Origin: Octopus vulgaris | Taxonomy: Eukaryota | NCBI GenBank assembly: GCA_951406725.2 | Contig: OX597818.1 | Location: 7,254,001 to 7,318,000, forward strand | Direction: 5' to 3' | DNA length: 64,000 nt | Shown here: positions 9,891 to 48,639 of the stretch, piece by piece | Numbering within the stretch: position 1 is the first letter of the stretch | How the letters are laid out: each line of letters begins with the position of its first letter | The notes under the pieces: model-generated | Database searches by the model: none | What the model was told of the DNA's origin: nothing | The model's input: the letters and a program-made list of their open reading frames with translations, nothing else | Program-made: the position numbers and the translations under genes

Positions 9891-11084
9891 ATTTGGAAAA
9901 AGGATGGTAAACATTTCGTACAGTATGCATTATATTAAAAATGATAAAGAATTTATGATTGTACCCTTTCTAATCATAGGTCATTTCGGTCATGTCTGAT
10001 GTAAACTAGTATATGCCACCTAAGAACCAGCTAAAGAGTAAATATCTTTTATTCTCCTATGCCTTGAATTCTTGAATGCGCTGTAGACGTGCTATTTAAG
10101 CATACATTATTTCTTGAGCATTTGTGAAACATGGTGCAGCCCATTCCTTTCTAGGCAAGATCATATCTGATTAATTTGTTCGTTTGCTCCTTCCTTCCTT
10201 CCTTCTTTCCTTCCAGAGAGATGTGGGAGGAGAGGAGAGAGAAAAGTGAGAAGCCGTATAAATCCAATGCGTGATTTGAACTCTAGACGTATTGAGCGTG
10301 TACAAATAGTGCTTGGCATTCTCTACGATGGTCTAACGAAACTGTCAATCTCTCGTTATCCTAATTCTAAATACCAACAGTTCTCCCGGTGCCTCATCTA
10401 TCACAGCAGTCCGACTGCATCTACTTAAAGGACCGCCTCTGGTATCATTAGCAGGAATGGCAACACTGACTCCGCCAAACCTAGAAAAAAGAATCACCAC
10501 CGCAACTACCACCTCCACCACCACCACCACCACCACCACCACCGCCATTATTACTAAACTCCATCAACGCCTCTGTTATCACCAGCATAAAAATCGCCAC
10601 CACCAACTTCACAACTACGACTATCATCACCATTACTGCTGCCATCACCACCACTAACAACAACAACAACAACAACACCATCACTACTCTCTCCATCACC
10701 AACTGAACTGCGCCACCATGTGTTCCATCGGAACGATAGTCATCACCAGTATAATCCCTGTATATTACTATAACTACCAATAATTACTGGCACCATTATG
10801 ATCACTACAACAAAAATCAGTACTAGTATCGCCTCTGTTATTACCTCCACCCCTTTAACATGAATATCACGAGAAACACCATTATGAATATTACCGTTTC
10901 AACCAGGGCGACTACAGCCAATGTCACCGACAGCATCGAAACCGCCTTAAACAACATATTCACGCAACCATCAACCCCGTCCACTTCAACTCCACCAATA
11001 TAATCCCCACCACCACCATGATGGTATTTCTTGTGATGCCGTTCCACTCTGTCCAAATGTCATTCCTTTGGTAAACGAACTGTT

Positions 11085-11668
11085 TGTAAGAATTAGCACT
11101 TCCTTCTCAAAGCTTGGATTCGAAATCAGACCCAAGAATCATTGGTCGTAAAATACCAATGCACAAAAAGGCGCGAAATCAGAATCTCTTTGTTCTGACA
11201 AAAAATGATGGATCGTCTCCCTTCGACCTCTGACCCGAGCAGGTCAGGCGAAGTTTAACAGGACGACCAGCGACCTACTTTAATGATAACTCTCTTGCGG
11301 TATATCTATTTTTCTGGCTATTTGAGATGTTATAAATAGAACGGAGAAATAGGTATCTAGAGAGAACCCGAATCAACGTTTAAGAGAACGCCACGCATTT
11401 ATGAGAACGACGAAAGAATATTCAGAAAGGTGACTCTGTCATGCATGATTTACACACACGCACACACACACACCATCAAACATATTCTGCTTTAATGTGT
11501 ATCCTGTATTATGCATTCCTTTAATATGTATTATTTGCAACCACTATTTAATATGCATTTTGTACAAGCGATGTGTAACATTGCTTACAAATTGATGTAG
11601 TGATAATAAATCTTTAATTTATTACAAAGCACTTATGTATTTATTAATACATCCACGCATCCACTACA
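11085..11668 (+). repeat. 5' LTR
   Basis: TGTAAG...CCACTACA; no difference from 16555-17138 by eye; TATAAATA at 11331-11338; AATAAA at 11605-11610. Confidence 0.97.
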
Positions 11669-11670
11669 TT

Positions 11671-11681
11671 TGGTGACCCCG
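11671..11681 (+). promoter_or_regulatory. Primer binding site (tRNA-Trp)
   Basis: TGGTGACCCCG 2 nt after the LTR, complementary to the tRNA-Trp 3' end CGGGGUCACCA. Confidence 0.9.
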
Positions 11682-11786
11682 CAAAACGAATCGCGCCTTC
11701 CCCGGAACCAGCTTCATCAACCGCGTCGAAGAATTACAGTTTGCACATCACCAGCAACGAAGCAACTGAAAATTCCGACGAAAACA

Positions 11787-12662
11787 ATGAATCTCCCGGA
11801 ACAAAACCCAGCGGCCAACATCGACATGGCATTCCAAGCGGCGATCTCGTTAAAAATTCCACCATTCTGGACCCACGACCCGACATTGTGGTTTCACCAT
11901 ATAGAGGCACAGTTTGCCTCTCACAGAATATCGAGCGATGCGGCTCGACTTTCTCACGTTATCAGTTCTCTGTCACCAGAAATAACGAACGTGATACACG
12001 ACCTTATCATGGCACCACCCGGTTCTGTTTCATATGAAGTTTTTAAAACCACGTTAATAAACAGAACCTCAGAATCCCAACAAAAAAGACTTCACCAGCT
12101 TCTGATATCGGAAGAATTGGGTGACAAAACGCCGTCCCAGCTTCTTCGGAGAATGAAACAGCTTCTCGGAGATGAGACGCTCCCAGAAAAAATCTTCAAG
12201 CAACTTTTTCTCCAGCGTCTGCCCTCCAATACCCAGGTTGTTCTCGCGTCCACCAGAGAAAACACATCCCTTGAAGAACTGGCGGAGCTAGCTGACAAAA
12301 TAGTCGAAGTACCGCACAGATATCCAACGGTATCGACGGTGACGCCAGCCGCTCCCAGTACCAATCCTTTCCGTGCACAAACCAGTTCTTCAGAGATTTC
12401 GGATTTGCGTGCATTAATGACGCAGCAAGCTGCGCAAATACAAATTCTCACAGCCCAAATACAAGCCCTAAAGTTTAGTCCCCAGCGTCGAAGCACCAGC
12501 CGATCTCGACGAGATGGCAGACGGTCCCGAAGCCCTAGTGCTACCCGGAGCTCACATGACACGTGTTGGTACCACCGAACATTCGGAACACGGGCACAAA
12601 AATGTACGGTACCGTGCTCGTTTTCCTCACCCAGTTCGGGAAACGGCACAGCCAGGAATTGA
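11787..12662 (+). CDS. gag: Gag protein
   Basis: First in-frame ATG at 11787 within ORF 11670-12662; [22 protein letters not shown]-terminal motif, [15 protein letters not shown]-rich linker, CWYH..FG..A.KC..PC motif. Confidence 0.9.
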
Positions 12663-12700
12663 ACGCGACGGAAGTTCCTGGTTCGCACCCACACAGTCGC
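12638..12700 (+). promoter_or_regulatory. -1 ribosomal frameshift signal (G GGA AAC plus stem-loop or pseudoknot)
   Basis: Heptamer 12638-12644 in the gag frame; pol is in the -1 frame; stem 12651-12660/12673-12682; loop GCGAC pairs with GTCGC at 12696-12700. Confidence 0.8.
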
Positions 12701-15211
12701 CTGTTTTTCGTTTGCGATCGTGTAACAGGCACGCGTTTCCTGGTTGACACAGGTGCGGAAGTCAGCATCATCCCAGTCTCCAACACTTCTGGAAAAAGAA
12801 AAGAGACATCAGTCTGTCTTCAGGCAGTCAACCATTCACCCATTCCAACCTACGGTGAACAGTCCCTAACATTAAACATAGGACTACGCCGCACATTTCA
12901 GTGGGTATTCGTCGTCGCTAAACTGCCGACCCCTATCTTAGGAGCCGATTTCCTGCATCATTTCGGTCTCCTGGTAGACATAAAGAACAGACGACTTGTC
13001 GACACCACCACCAAGCTTACTGTGCGCGGTATAGCCGCTCGAATGGACACAGTCAGCCCAACTGTAATGCTTACGACAACGACTCGTCACAGTTCCATCC
13101 TGAATGATTATCCAGATGTCGCCCGGCCAGTTTTTCATAACCAGCCGATAAAGCACGACGTTACCCACCACATCAAAACCAGCGGTCCACCTGTTGCTGC
13201 AAGGCCCAGAAGGTTACCACCTGATCGTCTCCAGGCCGTCAAGCGGGAATTCCAGCACATGCTCGACCTCGGAATCATCCGCGTTTCCAGCAGCAACTGG
13301 TCCTCGCCGATACACTGCGTCCCAAAAAAATCATCGACCGATTGGCGGGTTTGCGGCGATTATCGATCACTGAATAAAAGCACTATCAGTGATGCCTATC
13401 CGGTGCCTTTTCTTCAGGACTTTTCGAGCTCGCTGCATGGAGCTCGCATCTTTTCAAAAATCGACCTGGTGCGAGCATACAACCAAATCCCAGTCGAACC
13501 TGCAGACATCTCAAAGACAGCAGTGACTACACCTTTCGGAATGTTTGAATTCCTGCGTATGCCTTTCGGTTTACGAAACGCGGCACAGACATTCCAAAGG
13601 TTTATCGACATGGTGACTAGAGGTTTGCCTTTCGTCTATGCCTACATAGACGACATACTCGTGGCCAGTAACTCGGACGAAGAGCATAATCAACACCTTC
13701 ACCTGCTATTCGAACGTTTACGTAAATTCGGAATTGTTATCAACCCTACTAAATGTTTGTTCGGAGTTGCTTCCCTTCATTTTCTCGGCCATATAGTCGA
13801 TAAAAATGGAATTCGTCCCCTTCCCGAGAAAGTCAAGGCCATCGTGGATTTTCCACCACCCACATCTCTCCGCAAATTAAGGGAATATCTCGGTCTAGCG
13901 AATTTCTATCGACGGTTCGTGCCCCACCTCGCTGAAATAGCGCAACCGCTCACGGATTTGCTACGTCAGCGAACCTGCAAAAATGCAGATATAGCTCTGA
14001 CCGAAGATCAACTCGTTTCTTTCGCTGCCCTGAAAAAAGCGTTATCTAGCGCTACCATGTTGGTTTATCCAAAACCAGACGCCCCACGATGTTTACTCGT
14101 TGATGCATCCGATTCCGGAATCGGAGGTGTGCTACAGCAGCTTGTTGACGGTATATGGCAACCGTTGTCTTTCTTTTCTAAGCGGTTAAAACCCGCGGAA
14201 ACCAAATACAGCACATTCAGTCGGGAATTATTGGCGGCATACCTGGCCGTTAAGCATTTCCGTCACATGCTAGAAGGTACCAATTTTGCCATATATACCG
14301 ACCACAAGCCATTAGTATACGCATTTAACACCAAGCCGGATCGCCACTCGCCGAGAGAAATCCGCCACCTCGACTTCATATCGCAGTACACGACGGATAT
14401 ACGCCACATCAAAGGGACGACCAACGTGGCAGCCGATGCACTTTCACGTGCGCAGATCAATGCTATCCACACCACGTCTACAATTGATCTGGCACGTATA
14501 GCAGCTGACCAGGAGAATGACGAAGAACTTCTAAAGCTCCGGAATTCGTCATCTCTGAAATTTCAGCATGTTCCACTACCATCATCCACAGCCCATATTT
14601 GGTGTGATATTTCCACTGGTTACCAACGCCCTTATGTACCACAGAAATATCGTCGAGAAGTTTTCTCCGCTCTACATTCTCTGTCACATCCTGGTATTCG
14701 CTCCACTCAAAAGCTAATATCGACCCGTTTTGTGTGGACCAGTATCAACAAGGATATCAGAGAATGGACCAAGTGCTGTGTTGCGTGCCAAAAAGCGAAA
14801 ATCCACCGGCACATAAAATCACCAATCGGTTCATTTTCGCAGCCCGATGCACGATTTCAGCACGTTCACATTGATATCGTTGGACCCCTGCCACCTTCGC
14901 AGAACTATTCATATTTGCTAACTTGCGTAGATAGGTTCTCGCGATGGCCCGAAGCCTGGCCCCTATCTGATATATCAGCAGAAACGGTCGCTAAAACACT
15001 GATATCACAATGGGTTTCGCGTTTTGGCACACCCGCAACAATTACCACCGACAGAGGACGTCAGTTCGATTCCCACCTTTTCACCGAGCTGACTCGTCTC
15101 CTCGGGTGTAAACACACCCGCACTACAGCTTACCTATTTCTCCGTTCTATTTATAACATCTCAAATAGCCAGAAAAATAGATATACCGCAAGAGAGTTAT
15201 CATTAAAGTAG
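12638..15211 (+). CDS. pol: Pol (protease, RT, RNase H, N-terminal integrase), terminated prematurely inside the inserted LTR fragment
   Basis: [10 protein letters not shown] protease; YIDD RT; DASD...ELLA RNase H; HHCC finger; VHIDIVGP and ITTDRGRQF integrase aspartates; diverges after TRTTAY at 15133; stop at 15209-15211. Confidence 0.92.
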
Positions 15212-15314
15212 GTCGCTGGTCGTCCTGTTAAACTTCGCCTGACCTGCTCGGGTCAGAGGTCGAAGGGAGACGATCCATCATTTTTTGTCAGAACAAAGAG
15301 ATTCTGATTTCGCG
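15131..15314 (-). repeat. Inverted copy of the element's own LTR segment (11172-11355 = 16642-16825) inside integrase
   Basis: Reverse complement matches the LTR base for base, from CGCGAAATCAG to GAAATAGGTA. Confidence 0.96.
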
Positions 15315-15965
15315 GTGGAGCGCTTTCACCGCCAACTCAAGGCATCTATAAAAGCAGCTCCAGACAGTTCTCACTGGTTGGAACATCTCCCTCTCATCCT
15401 CCTTGGAATTCGATCCACGATTAAGGAAGAACTGGGATATACTCCGGCCGAACTCGTTTATGGCACAACACTCACCTTACCTGGGCAGATGATCGAACCT
15501 GTTTCACAAAACTTCCCTGACCCACAACAATATGTGCACCGATTACGAACATCCATGTCGCAAGTATCACCCTCAGGCCCCAGACAACAGAACGTCGTTT
15601 CACGTGTCCCAAAAGATATCAACACATGGACTCATGTCTTCGTGAGGAATGATGGGATACCCTCTCAACTTCGACCACCATATTCCGGGCCCTACAAGGT
15701 CATCAAAAGAGAACCCAAGTATTTCGTCCTCGATATTAGAGGTAAACGAAATACGGTCTCGATTGATCGTTTAAAAAAAGCTTTCATCGAGGAGGACTTA
15801 CATTCAGTCCCCTCTTTTCCTCAAACAGACTCGGCAACTCCAGCGAACACCACAGATTCTGCACAACCCCGACACACCAAATCAGGAAGAACAGTTCGAT
15901 GGCCAGCAAGGTTTGTGCAAGTTTTTCGGGTAAGTTCTGAACTCCTAACGTATCCATCTTCCTAA
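15315..15965 (+). pseudogene. Out-of-frame C-terminal integrase remainder (catalytic E, GPY/F motif)
   Basis: VERFHRQLK...LLGIRSTIKEELGYTPAELVYG...PPYSGPYKV...VSIDRLK; open, but in a different frame from pol. Confidence 0.9.
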
Positions 15966-16541
15966 TGAACACATAACTGCATCACCCACCCAGAGAAATC
16001 AAAGAACATTTGTGTACGTAAAGAAAAAAAAAAATGAAAACAAAAACTGTCTGTATGAACTTTTACGGAACATTTCAAAATCGAACTTTGCCGATGAACA
16101 TTTCTTTCATTTTTGCATGTACATATTTTTTGGTTTTCTCTTCAAAATGTTTGCTTTCTCATAAATATATTTTTTTGCTAACTGTATATCCACACACATT
16201 CACAAATCTTGTTCACATGCGTGCTATCACTCGATATTTTTTCGCCACTGAAAGACACCTTGCCTCTATTAGACCTCTAGTAGGTCGAGTAATCAATAGA
16301 CGCACATCTCTTTCAACGCGCCAACATAATTCTGCCTGGGCACATATACATATTGCCCACCATATAGCACACACAAATTGTAAACCTTTCATGCATATTT
16401 TTATCGTTCAATGTGTAAAAAAAAAAATTAAAAAAAATTTTTTTTCTACATGCACACAATCAAAAAAAAAAAAAAAAAAATAATAAAAATAATAATAATA
16501 ATACATTTCCAATATCGTTCGATCTCTGTGGCTTTCTCACT

Positions 16542-16551
16542 AGAAGGGGGG
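16542..16551 (+). promoter_or_regulatory. Polypurine tract
   Basis: AGAAGGGGGG just upstream of the 3' LTR. Confidence 0.88.
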
Positions 16552-16554
16552 TAG

Positions 16555-17138
16555 TGTAAGAATTAGCACTTCCTTCTCAAAGCTTGGATTCGAAATCAGA
16601 CCCAAGAATCATTGGTCGTAAAATACCAATGCACAAAAAGGCGCGAAATCAGAATCTCTTTGTTCTGACAAAAAATGATGGATCGTCTCCCTTCGACCTC
16701 TGACCCGAGCAGGTCAGGCGAAGTTTAACAGGACGACCAGCGACCTACTTTAATGATAACTCTCTTGCGGTATATCTATTTTTCTGGCTATTTGAGATGT
16801 TATAAATAGAACGGAGAAATAGGTATCTAGAGAGAACCCGAATCAACGTTTAAGAGAACGCCACGCATTTATGAGAACGACGAAAGAATATTCAGAAAGG
16901 TGACTCTGTCATGCATGATTTACACACACGCACACACACACACCATCAAACATATTCTGCTTTAATGTGTATCCTGTATTATGCATTCCTTTAATATGTA
17001 TTATTTGCAACCACTATTTAATATGCATTTTGTACAAGCGATGTGTAACATTGCTTACAAATTGATGTAGTGATAATAAATCTTTAATTTATTACAAAGC
17101 ACTTATGTATTTATTAATACATCCACGCATCCACTACA
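16555..17138 (+). repeat. 3' LTR
   Basis: Direct repeat of 11085-11668 at an offset of 5470. Confidence 0.97.
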
Positions 17139-18901
17139 TGTTGTTATTTTCTTTTTTATTGGTGTCTACAAAACAACAATTTTCTTTATATATGACATCA
17201 TATCGGGAAAGATGCGTAGTAAAGGGGCGGCTGATATGGAGAAGATGGAGGTAGTGACTCTCGGAGGATATTTCTGATGGTGGTCGTCGTGGTGATGATC
17301 ATGGTGGAAGGGATGATGTTGTTGCTGTTGTTATTGTTGTTTTTGGTTGTTTTGTTAGCATTGGTTTCGCTGTGTTAATGTTGCTTGAGGTGGAAATGGT
17401 AGTTGTAGTGGTGGTCATGTGGTAGGGTTGTAAGAGTTGGTAAATGAGTGTGAATATTGTTGGTGCTGTTGGTGCTTGTGGGGGTGCAGCTCGTAAGAGG
17501 TGGTGCCGTTGTTTGTGGTGGTGATAGTGGTGTTTGTATTCCTGAGGGACAGCCGAGTTATTAATGCTCAAGCGCGTGCTTTGAGTGACCTTTTATTATA
17601 ACTATTACTGATAACTCCGTTGTTGCTGATACTGTTACAAAAACAAAACAAAAAAGAAAAACGGAACAGCACCTATCATCAGTCGTACACACAGTCGCGC
17701 CATTACCACCGCCACCACCACCGCCACCACAATCACCACCACCACCTCCGCTGCCGCCACCACCATCACCACCACCACCACCACCACCACCACCACCACC
17801 ACCTCCGCCGCCGCCGCCGCCACCACCACCATTACTACAACTACTACAAATTTTCTTCGTTGCGACGACCACCGCTGATGATATTGCCATTTTCCAGCTT
17901 CTTTTAGTGCGTTGATTTAGATAAATATAAATGACACATAAAACAAATCTTAAACAAGCCGTGTGCCATTGTCCTTCCCGTCCCTGGTGGAGAACAGTAA
18001 AACCTTTCTGCCCGAATATATTAGAGCGATTACTTTGTCAATGCCAGCGAAATGACAGAAGGATGAAAGTTGCGGAAACTTTATCCCAAAGACCACACAC
18101 AAATTCCTGTTGTCCACCAAACCCTATGATTGAACAATAAACTAACATTTTCAGACAGTTCGAGAACATTTTTTAAAGGGTGTCAGAAATGTGGTGATGG
18201 CAAAAATCTGACAATAAGCTTCTGTTTCTTTTTGTCTCCTCTTCTTGCGTCTTTCACTTTTACCCTCTTTTTATCTATTTCTAGTTTTTACGCTAATATT
18301 GCTTTACATCAAGGGCCACTTATTTTTTCTGCTTTCTATTTTTTGTTCCTCATTCGCAAATTCTCTCATCTTTTCACTACATTTTATTGCCTTTTATTTA
18401 GGAACACTTGATCTGCTGTATTAATTCCCAAGAAGGTGTTTCATATATCATTGCTCTGTAGATTTTTTTTACTTTGTTTATTATATGTATTTACAATTCC
18501 ATGATATATTAGCAGGAGCACTAACAACAATACAAGAGAGAAAATATAACGATAGCTAAACAATAAAAGTAGAATAGAACAACACTAACTAAAAACGAGT
18601 ATCAAGAACTGAATTATGCTTAACACTGGTACACATAATGCAAATTGCATTGGGAAGAATTTAGAAAAGCGAAGTTTTGGGCTGCAAAATTGATTTATCA
18701 ATCGGTTTTCAGTATATCTTATATTTTCATTATATATGTGTATGTGTGTATATGTATGTATATATATGTGTATGTGCATTTGTGTGTGTTTGTGTTATAT
18801 TTATATATGTATATATATATATATATATTAAGTATCTAATATATATAATATATATGTGTGTTATATTTATAAATCTTTATACATAAATAAATATATATAT
18901 T

Positions 18902-46545: not shown

Positions 46546-47880
46546 AAAAGAATTCAAATGTGAAAGATTATTGGGCAAAGGTTTCCCATGCAAAATATAA
46601 GCCAATTTACTAATCAATAAATCAATCCGTCAATCATTTATAATCAATGACGTACAGCTAATTCTTAAATTGTGTTAAGCCTGCTCTTTGATGTAATGGC
46701 CTACAACTGAGTATCTGCAGTCCCTGAACATCATTGTATCTTATTTTGTTTGCTTTTACATAACGTTTCGTACTTTTGTATATTTTTGGTCAATATTATA
46801 CAGTATAAAAGTCAGCGACAATTTATAAGAGTCACTTCCAGTTATTATGTACAAATTTACATCCATTTTTTTTTTATTTGTTTAAATAATTATTTTCCGA
46901 CTATACATTGTTAAATAGTTTAGATTAATTACTGTGATTTTGTAGGTGAATTTAAATTCTAATGAGCTATAAATATCGCCAGTCCCATTTCTTAAAAAGA
47001 AAAAACCTAGTTTCGTTGCAAGTAATATGCTGTGCTATAATCATGTTAACTATATATACATTACTGAGGTACTGTGACGGTGACATGGTACCAATTAAAA
47101 TACAATGCATGCCATAAAATTTAAATCGTCGAATCAATGTTGATGAATATCATTTTTCCTTCACTGCACATACTGATCAAACTGTACATACGATTAATCG
47201 CTCCAGTGTATTAGGACGTCACAAAACTGAAACGAAGTATGCTATTCGCTTCACAGGCGGCTTTCTTTCTGATTCATTATAGATACTTTAAGATGTTATT
47301 TATTGATATGATGATGTTTATGCTATTTATAAAGGAAAAGGTTAACCCAAATCGCATTCTGATTTATTTATATTTTATAATACACGTTAGAATATCGCCT
47401 GAAAAAGCGCAGATCAATTAGAGTATCGGTATGCTAATTACTAAACTAGAAACTAATTACTCGCTCATTGGTTTGGAAATAAACAAAAACATACTGCTGC
47501 ATATTATATTTCATTACTTTTTTTTTGTTTTCGACGCTTCTTTGAACCTATTTGATGTCTGGTAGTTACTGAATACAAGTCTGCCTACATTAAATAACTT
47601 TCGTCTTTCTTCTATGCAACATTCGTTTACTTGTTTTCAGTATTTTGTATGCATTGATAGTTAAGACTAGGCTTTGAAAGAAAAATACTGTACCGGCTGT
47701 GGGAGTGAGTCATAGTCTAGCCTGTGATTATGCAAAAATTAAGGCTAGCAAAAGAATCACTATAATATGTCTTTCAAAATATTTAGAATCCAATTTAAGC
47801 GTGTACGCCATTAATTGTTTAATTGTTGAATACTTAAATCAAAATCCATAAGAACGTAAGAATCATGCCTGATTTTCAGA

Positions 47881-48011
47881 TAAACTAATAAGTAGTGGTG
47901 GAAGGTGTGTGAAGTTGAAGCTCAAGCATAGATTACTATTATCAACAGTTGCCTATTTCTATGCATTCAACAAATCCCTGCGTTTTGTAATCCAAACCTA
48001 ATATATGTATG

Positions 48012-48045
<34 letters not shown>

Positions 48046-48081
48046 TGTATGTATGTATGTATGTATATATATATATAAATG

Positions 48082-48138
<57 letters not shown>

Positions 48139-48142
48139 GTAT

Positions 48143-48212
<70 letters not shown>

Positions 48213-48454
48213 GAATATATATATACATACATACACATATAGATACACACATACATACATACATACATACATACATACATACATACATACATACATACAT
48301 ACATACGTACATACATATATATATAAACTAATAAGTAGTGGTGGAAGGTGTGTGAAGTTGAAGCTCAAGCATAGATTACTATTATCAACAGTTGCCTATT
48401 TCTATGCATTCAACAAATCCCTGCGTTTTGTAATCCAAACCTAATATATGTATG

Positions 48455-48488
<34 letters not shown>

Positions 48489-48526
48489 TGTATGTATGTA
48501 TGTATGTATATATATATAAATGTATG

Positions 48527-48581
<55 letters not shown>

Positions 48582-48585
48582 GTAT

Positions 48586-48639
<54 letters not shown>

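Follow-up and report, generated by a model that had tools for sequence, protein, structure and literature searches.

The stretch of octopus DNA analyzed here, a window of 64,000 nucleotides without a single N, carries an LTR retrotransposon at nucleotides 11085 to 17138 (Table 1). The 4-bp TSD that bounds the window copy has a counterpart in 25 of 28 siblings, and the nearest Gag match, 99% identical, is named Octopus vulgaris. Pfam domains occur in the order PR-RT-RH-IN, and gag, PR, RT, RH, the PBS, the polypurine tract (PPT), and the LTRs of the window copy read unbroken. The U3 region was assigned by the position of a TATA box (LTR nt 247), and the end of R was placed at the poly(A) site (LTR nt 544) from a contig with a poly(A) tail. 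The PBS is an 11-nt match to the 3′ end of a genomic tRNA, and ARAGORN calls one of the three tRNA loci (L084) as tRNA-Trp. For the CsRn1 clade of Ty3/gypsy elements, the part of the clade's description drawn on here lists a CHCC Gag, a tRNA-Trp PBS, a 4-bp TSD, TGT...ACA ends, and a gag/pol overlap (PMC2582038). The window element has all of these in common with the clade and differs from that portion of the description in its host, Octopus. It matches a young CsRn1-clade gypsy element, a placement made by features against the clade's description and not by a tree.

Table 1. Features of the retrotransposon and of its inverted insert (window coordinates)
Feature	Position	Strand	Remarks
TSD, left copy, 4 bp	11081-11084	+	
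5′ LTR, 584 bp, TG...CA	11085-11668	+	identical to 3′ LTR
7-purine run, LTR nt 81-87	11165-11171	+	just before first copied base; possible cryptic plus-strand primer, post hoc
U3 segment, LTR nt 88-271, equal to insert	11172-11355	+	includes TATA box (nt 247); U3 assigned from TATA position
gag frame, stop to stop, 350 aa	11610-12662	+	DUF7041; CX2HX9CX3C (CHCC) at 12564-12617
PBS, 11 nt	11671-11681	+	complementary to tRNA-Trp 3′ end
Leader 9-mer	11691-11699	+	complementary to LTR nt 84-92; equals microhomology of L052 inverted filler; shuffle p 0.019
pol frame, PR-RT-RH-H2C2-partial rve, truncated	12560-15211	+	overlaps gag in another frame; ends with 25 insert-encoded residues, then TAG
Recombinant tract of older lineage	14137-14362	+	5 variants at third codon positions, present in older copies and in none of 23 young ones
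Inverted U3 insert	15131-15314	-	179 new nt plus microhomologies of 4 nt (15131-15134) and 1 nt (15314); replaces 19 nt of integrase core
Remaining integrase	15315-15965	+	includes catalytic E codon (15318-15320); out of pol frame
Polypurine tract	16542-16551	+	
3′ LTR	16555-17138	+	nt 16642-16825 would pair with insert in transcript; poly(A) site 17098
TSD, right copy	17139-17142	+	LTR-flank junction in public DNA runs X7, X8 (one sample)

The integrase region of this copy is interrupted by an inverted piece of LTR sequence. Over exactly 184 nt, the insert is the reverse complement of the same U3 segment of both LTRs (11172 to 11355 and 16642 to 16825), and the identity stops at the two borders without extending on either side. 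It sits between TRTTAY and VERFH of the integrase reading. An earlier reading made from the sequence alone had described both this exact inverse match and its location, and had proposed that pol is truncated. Indeed, pol is 883 residues long and terminates at a TAG (15209 to 15211). The two catalytic D codons are retained, whereas the E codon is out of frame; the D-35-E spacing was checked in a sibling.

The extent of the change was defined by alignment to siblings, a check that the sequence-only reading had proposed. Both anchors were found in 28 of 29 sibling loci (L002 to L030, with L029 the sole one lacking a resolved spacer), and each of the 28 has a 24-nt spacer at the insert site. The spacer matches the insert over 4 nt at the left junction in 27 siblings (2 nt in L024) and over 1 nt at the right junction in all 28. 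The window copy has accordingly lost 19 nt and gained 179, a net addition of 160 nt that shifts the frame. The left microhomology had earlier been read as TAC; a microhomology is present at that junction, but the siblings extend it from 3 to 4 nt and add the 1-nt match on the right, and they also reduce the earlier estimate of about 21 replaced nucleotides. No duplication flanks the insert, as had been noted before, and target DNA was lost instead. Auto-integration or nested insertion of an LTR was considered and rejected on these grounds: the insert ends inside U3 (nt 88 and 271), 19 nt are gone, and the target is not duplicated.

Deletions with insertions made by RT are textbook events in retroviruses, and the primary papers on them are said to be that of Pathak and Temin in 1990 and another from 1995. 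The window insert shows the hallmarks of an RT-made event, in that the template is the element itself, the homology at the junctions is short, and target sequence is lost. According to the part of one source drawn on here, the retroviral events arise by intramolecular template switching of RT (PMC3187697). As in that account, the window copy has lost a short stretch in exchange for a templated piece of its own sequence, shows microhomology at the junctions, and is otherwise normally integrated. It differs from what the same text describes in being a germ-line LTR retrotransposon with an inverted U3 donor that recurs across copies, and a tie to tRNA-bearing strong-stop DNA is found only in the octopus siblings, two of them.

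Each junction 33-mer, searched with up to one mismatch, occurs once in the 2.8-Gb genome (G000), in a search whose control pattern recovered every expected fetched copy. Both junctions being single, the insert has not spread; the junctions lie at one locus only rather than marking a propagating non-autonomous subfamily, and the genome search that had been suggested from the sequence thus indicates a single event. The 3′ flank is present once in the assembly, where neither a second haplotype nor an empty site was found. Because the identical 184-mer is held by 19 of 23 young siblings, the donor is not assignable to the window copy's own LTR. From 14365 to the end of the element, the window copy agrees with a single sibling haplotype, before as well as after the insert. 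An intermolecular crossover at the insert was considered as a candidate, but this continuity leaves no switch between templates at that point.

The locus could in principle be a chimera of assembly or library, which we regard as very unlikely. Contigs from two public DNA runs of one sample (X7 and X8) hold the element's 3′ LTR-flank junction without differences, at depths of 27 and 21, and the insertion site is therefore real. A mis-join in the assembly graph would be expected to need long common words, not 4 and 1 nt, and a double switch that returns 19 nt downstream is unlike the fold-backs of reads. Moreover, inserts of this class recur in two further loci (L052 and L092, described below), where they go together with a tRNA-derived mark, which assembly software would not produce. 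The inversion junctions themselves were not found in the Logan contigs of any listed run, contigs that show presence and not absence and that are simplified by Minia3 according to the part of the Logan preprint drawn on here. These contigs collapsed even alleles common to 7 of 23 copies. The absence nonetheless carries weight, because X7 and X8 contain the 3′ junction of the element and a single-copy link of similar kind, from L057, survived in X7; the sample may be an animal other than the assembled one, or may have a solo LTR or an unrearranged allele at the site. Each of the 20 runs listed as holders has 0.78 of the 23 words sampled. Of the 216 words, 55 have no match in 50 other loci; these coincide exactly with the words of the junctions, for which 5.9 of 23 would be expected. 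No RNA run is among the listed holders.

The family is young: LTR pairs differ by at most one change in 11 of the 19 young siblings with alignable LTRs, 4-bp TSDs are the rule (see above), and four other loci carry an LTR identical to that of the window copy. The identical LTRs, which the sequence-only reading had treated as something to be explained, are thus ordinary for this family. Three lone LTRs (L061, L062, and L063), 99 to 100% identical to the window LTR and not accompanied by a long internal region over a distance of about 5 kb, are recent solo LTRs. The window copy carries seven substitutions that are absent from the 23 young copies. Five of them are third-position variants common to older copies and make up the recombinant tract, which leaves only two private substitutions in about 5.9 kb. 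An ADAR-type cluster was rejected both for the window copy, where the cluster is this old-lineage tract, and for L055, where the spectrum is mixed. In L055, 15 mixed-type singleton substitutions cluster on the same integrase stretch (window-equivalent 15015 to 15372), which likely received a tract by recombination with a diverged copy.

With only two private substitutions, a chromosomal event would have had little time to occur. One such event would be a break that was repaired after integration by templated synthesis and then end-joining, with the variants of fold-back priming or polymerase-theta-type synthesis from an LTR at a distance of 1.3 or 3.8 kb, or a captured fragment of cDNA. End-joining would be consistent with a small deletion that has microhomologies of 4 and 1 nt, and the filler of another copy, L057, looks locally templated. 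However, the ratio of two inverted-U3 events in 24 young copies to 138 singleton substitutions in 23 young copies lies far above what germ-line repair would be expected to give. We consider this origin unlikely, and one of the siblings described next also counts against it.

We compared 62 family loci (L033 to L082 and L087 to L098), which are the best-scoring loci and not all copies, with a natural sibling and with themselves. L099 to L102 were excluded as other families, and inverted matches outside elements or in microsatellites (L055, L056, L061 to L063, L075, L082, L088, and others) were not counted. Internal deletions are common among these loci. Inverted LTR pieces are present in four, as inverted U3 in two of the 62 (L052 and L092) and as inverted U5 ends in two more (L064 and L091). 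Under a uniform cis-template null, the probability that any one filler is inverted U3 is 0.047.

In L052 (G000:C4, about 176.518 Mb), about 590 nt are deleted immediately downstream of the PBS, and the gap is filled by inverted U3 nt 59 to 92, a filler that comprises 25 new nucleotides with 9 nt of microhomology on the left and none on the right. The element has identical LTRs and a TSD, and reads from a 17-nt tRNA-extended PBS through 15 nt of leader into the inverted U3. L092 (G000:C9, about 87.8616 to 87.8622 Mb, minus strand) is an older element of 585 bp, in which one LTR is followed by the PBS, a single additional base, and the initial 58 nt of U3 in inverted orientation. A 4-bp duplication, which is palindromic, flanks the whole. 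In three of five homologous repeat copies, the flanks are contiguous with a 4-nt overlap, and the other two do not align across the site. This clean target site shows that the fold-back formed before integration. L092 proves that a pre-integration route to inverted U3 exists, which argues against repair of the chromosome.

Both of these loci stand out at the PBS. The match to tRNA-Trp is 11 nt long in 49 of 51 sites and longer only in L052 (17 nt) and L092 (15 nt), the latter having been retrieved by a PBS search before its inversion was known. The association of tRNA-extended PBS with inverted U3 gives a Fisher p of 0.002 when the window is counted as an 11-nt site with inverted U3, in a test devised post hoc, with the ascertained window copy among the cases. 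The window and L052 are also alike in polarity, in that the 5′ junction has the longer microhomology, of 4 and 9 nt respectively, against 0 to 1 nt at the 3′ junction, and the insert and the L052 filler have the same orientation.

The inverted U3 pieces of L092 (nt 1 to 58/59), L052 (nt 59 to 92), and the window (nt 88 to 271) nearly tile U3. Their common breakpoints near nt 59, in a predicted hairpin at about nt 56 to 78, and near nt 88 to 92 may reflect pause sites or fragment ends, or chance. The leader at 11691 to 11699 and U3 at 11168 to 11176 are perfectly complementary over 9 nt, a match that is kept in young copies and shortened to 5 to 7 nt in most older ones. This complementarity resembles the cyclization elements of Ty1.

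A tRNA copy is carried only by plus-strand strong-stop DNA. Since the inverted pieces of L052 and L092 start from, or just after, such a copy, these two siblings point to a sense-U3 donor and are best read as plus-strand strong-stop DNAs whose 3′ end copied sense U3 backwards. An origin before integration is indicated for L052 as well. In Ty1 and Ty3, plus-strand strong-stop DNA bears a tRNA copy and is, under the PPT recycling model, a dead-end product: new priming at the PPT displaces it, it is not passed on, and it builds up in particles, according to the part of the source drawn on here (PMC5371799). The octopus family resembles that account in that the tRNA copy is normally not inherited, as in 49 of 51 sites, and displaced sense U3-R-U5 DNA of the same kind would be the donor. 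What is described there is accumulation in particles, whereas in the octopus genome such a product survives as integrated fossils, L092 and L052 (PMC5371799, same portion).

By analogy with these two siblings, from which the donor strand and the timing for the window copy are inferred, we lean toward an origin in the virus-like particle, where RT probably jumped onto plus-strand (sense) U3 DNA and back. The growing plus strand would have reached 15134, where its end could pair by 4 nt with sense U3 nt 268 to 271 on what was probably displaced, single-stranded plus-strand strong-stop DNA. Extension would then have copied U3 back to nt 88, after which the plus strand would have returned to the minus strand at 15314 in an end-to-end jump. 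Possibly the donor was a fragment whose end lay at nt 88, a post hoc suggestion made because a run of 7 purines immediately precedes this nucleotide (as is the case, with at least 7 purines, for 7 of 577 LTR positions). The defective cDNA would have been inserted by integrase made from the parent transcript. In an indistinguishable variant, the U3 piece would prime minus-strand synthesis on RNA and yield the same final sequence. A predicted DNA hairpin lies just 5′ of LTR nt 268 to 271.

The recurrence of inverted U3, the tRNA mark, the timing seen in L092, the common polarity, the two private substitutions, and the single haplotype across the insert all argue for this reading. Several observations count against it. 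The PBS of the window copy is an ordinary one of 11 nt, and the 4-nt left match is unspecific, occurring 16 times on the element's plus strand while matches of 5 to 6 nt elsewhere went unused. End-to-end clamping by RTs of retroviruses and LTR retrotransposons typically needs at least 2 bp (PMC8363836), compared with 1 nt at the right junction. A change in the plus strand only could also leave a heteroduplex in need of resolution. Finally, host repair acts on the family as well, given that the filler of L057, an older copy, is short and resembles the locally templated products of chromosomal end-joining.

Alternatively, the nascent minus strand at 15314 could have switched to its own minus-strand U3, copied nt 88 to 271, and returned to the RNA by 4 nt. 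This route gives the same sequence, produces a homoduplex directly, and fits the 11-nt PBS. Inverted U5 ends of a minus-strand type exist in the family (L064 and L091), and a stable RNA structure just 5′ of the break, where 100-nt windows rank in the most stable 1% and 3.5% of 201, is a possible pause site. However, entry would depend on 1 nt, plus-strand synthesis, initiated repeatedly at the PPT, would be expected to leave minus-strand U3 covered, and both sibling cases of inverted U3 bear the plus-strand tRNA mark. We judge it improbable. The double template switch proposed in the sequence-only reading is thus retained as the favored kind of event, a deletion-with-insertion by RT, but its minus-strand donor, the element's own U3, is not, since L052 and L092 point to plus-strand U3.

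We regard the inverted U3 as probably a copying error that the element's RT makes repeatedly, not as a new kind of gene. Comparable segments are known from HIV-1, for which the portions of the reports drawn on here give two inverted proviruses, 1.3% each (PMC9278108), and inversions in 2.4% to 21% of proviruses depending on the pipeline (PMC8264403). In HIV-1, as in the octopus family, a few percent of the integrated copies are thus defective ones with an inverted segment; for the HIV-1 inversions, no mechanism or U3 bias is stated in those portions (PMC9278108, PMC8264403). Inversion circles made by auto-integration form within the particle, as is proposed for the window insert, but in the part of the description drawn on here they join LTR termini, whereas the insert lies inside U3 and removes target DNA (PMC7197481). 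The parts of two other sources drawn on here contain nothing on inverted inserts (PMC4189041, PMC6894440). In the literature searched, which covers older virology thinly, we found no description of a recurrent inverted-U3 class tied to tRNA-bearing strong-stop DNA with an integrated fold-back.

The window insert itself is one dead copy, and the interest lies in the family around it. This family provides germ-line fossil evidence that tRNA-bearing strong-stop DNA folds back onto U3, integrates (L092), and gives rise to inverted patches in copies that are otherwise normal. It also suggests that inverted U3 beside a tRNA-extended PBS is a candidate genome-wide signature for separating RT-born rearrangements from host repair in young LTR families.

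A transcript of the window copy is predicted to form a long perfect hairpin with a 184-bp stem and a 1.3-kb loop, all 184 of 184 positions of the insert pairing with the 3′ U3 in the minimum free energy fold. If such a hairpin were active, an LTR family could make its own silencer. A combined proposal would hold that plus-strand strong-stop DNA is a routine mutagenic donor and that an internal inverted U3 turns its copy into a self-silencer, in which the promoter hairpin, or antisense transcription across pol from the inverted TATA, would feed ADAR or piRNA-type silencing of sister copies, equivalent to a Mu killer made by the element's own RT. Models of this sort seem to us highly improbable, as does a silencing role of the hairpin itself, because no dedicated siRNA pathway turned up when molluscs were surveyed, and such RNA may be melted by editing, according to the part of the source drawn on here (PMC12479628). 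Mu killer of maize, as portrayed in the corresponding part of its description, is likewise a rearranged copy that forms a hairpin, of 2.4 kb there against the predicted 184-bp stem here (PMC2563033). An antisense nested insertion in EVD is proposed, in the portion of that paper drawn on, to form a hairpin with element sequence (PMC11624286), a structure that is predicted here.

Other rearrangements were seen in the family and its surroundings. L064 (618 to 655) and L091 (430 to 826) have the inverted U5 end at the left, joined head to head to LTR sequence. The 5′ LTRs of L045, L055, and L057 are cut after 112, about 400, and 54 nt, respectively, and are joined to internal sequence with the TSD intact, which could reflect either premature second strand transfer or later deletion. 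L076 (G000:C17, about 22.39 Mb) has its own deletion junction, from internal position 2211 to LTR nt 11, duplicated upstream in the sense orientation with about 1.3 kb. About twenty other loci in G000 carry a long PBS of tRNA-Trp type behind a different LTR end; the four fetched from among them (L099 to L102) have no DNA similarity to the window family and represent other tRNA-Trp-primed families. Elsewhere in the window, nucleotides 47868 to 48167 and 48311 to 48622 form a 300-nt direct duplication of 98% identity that runs into a TA-rich microsatellite, either a local duplication or an assembly slip.
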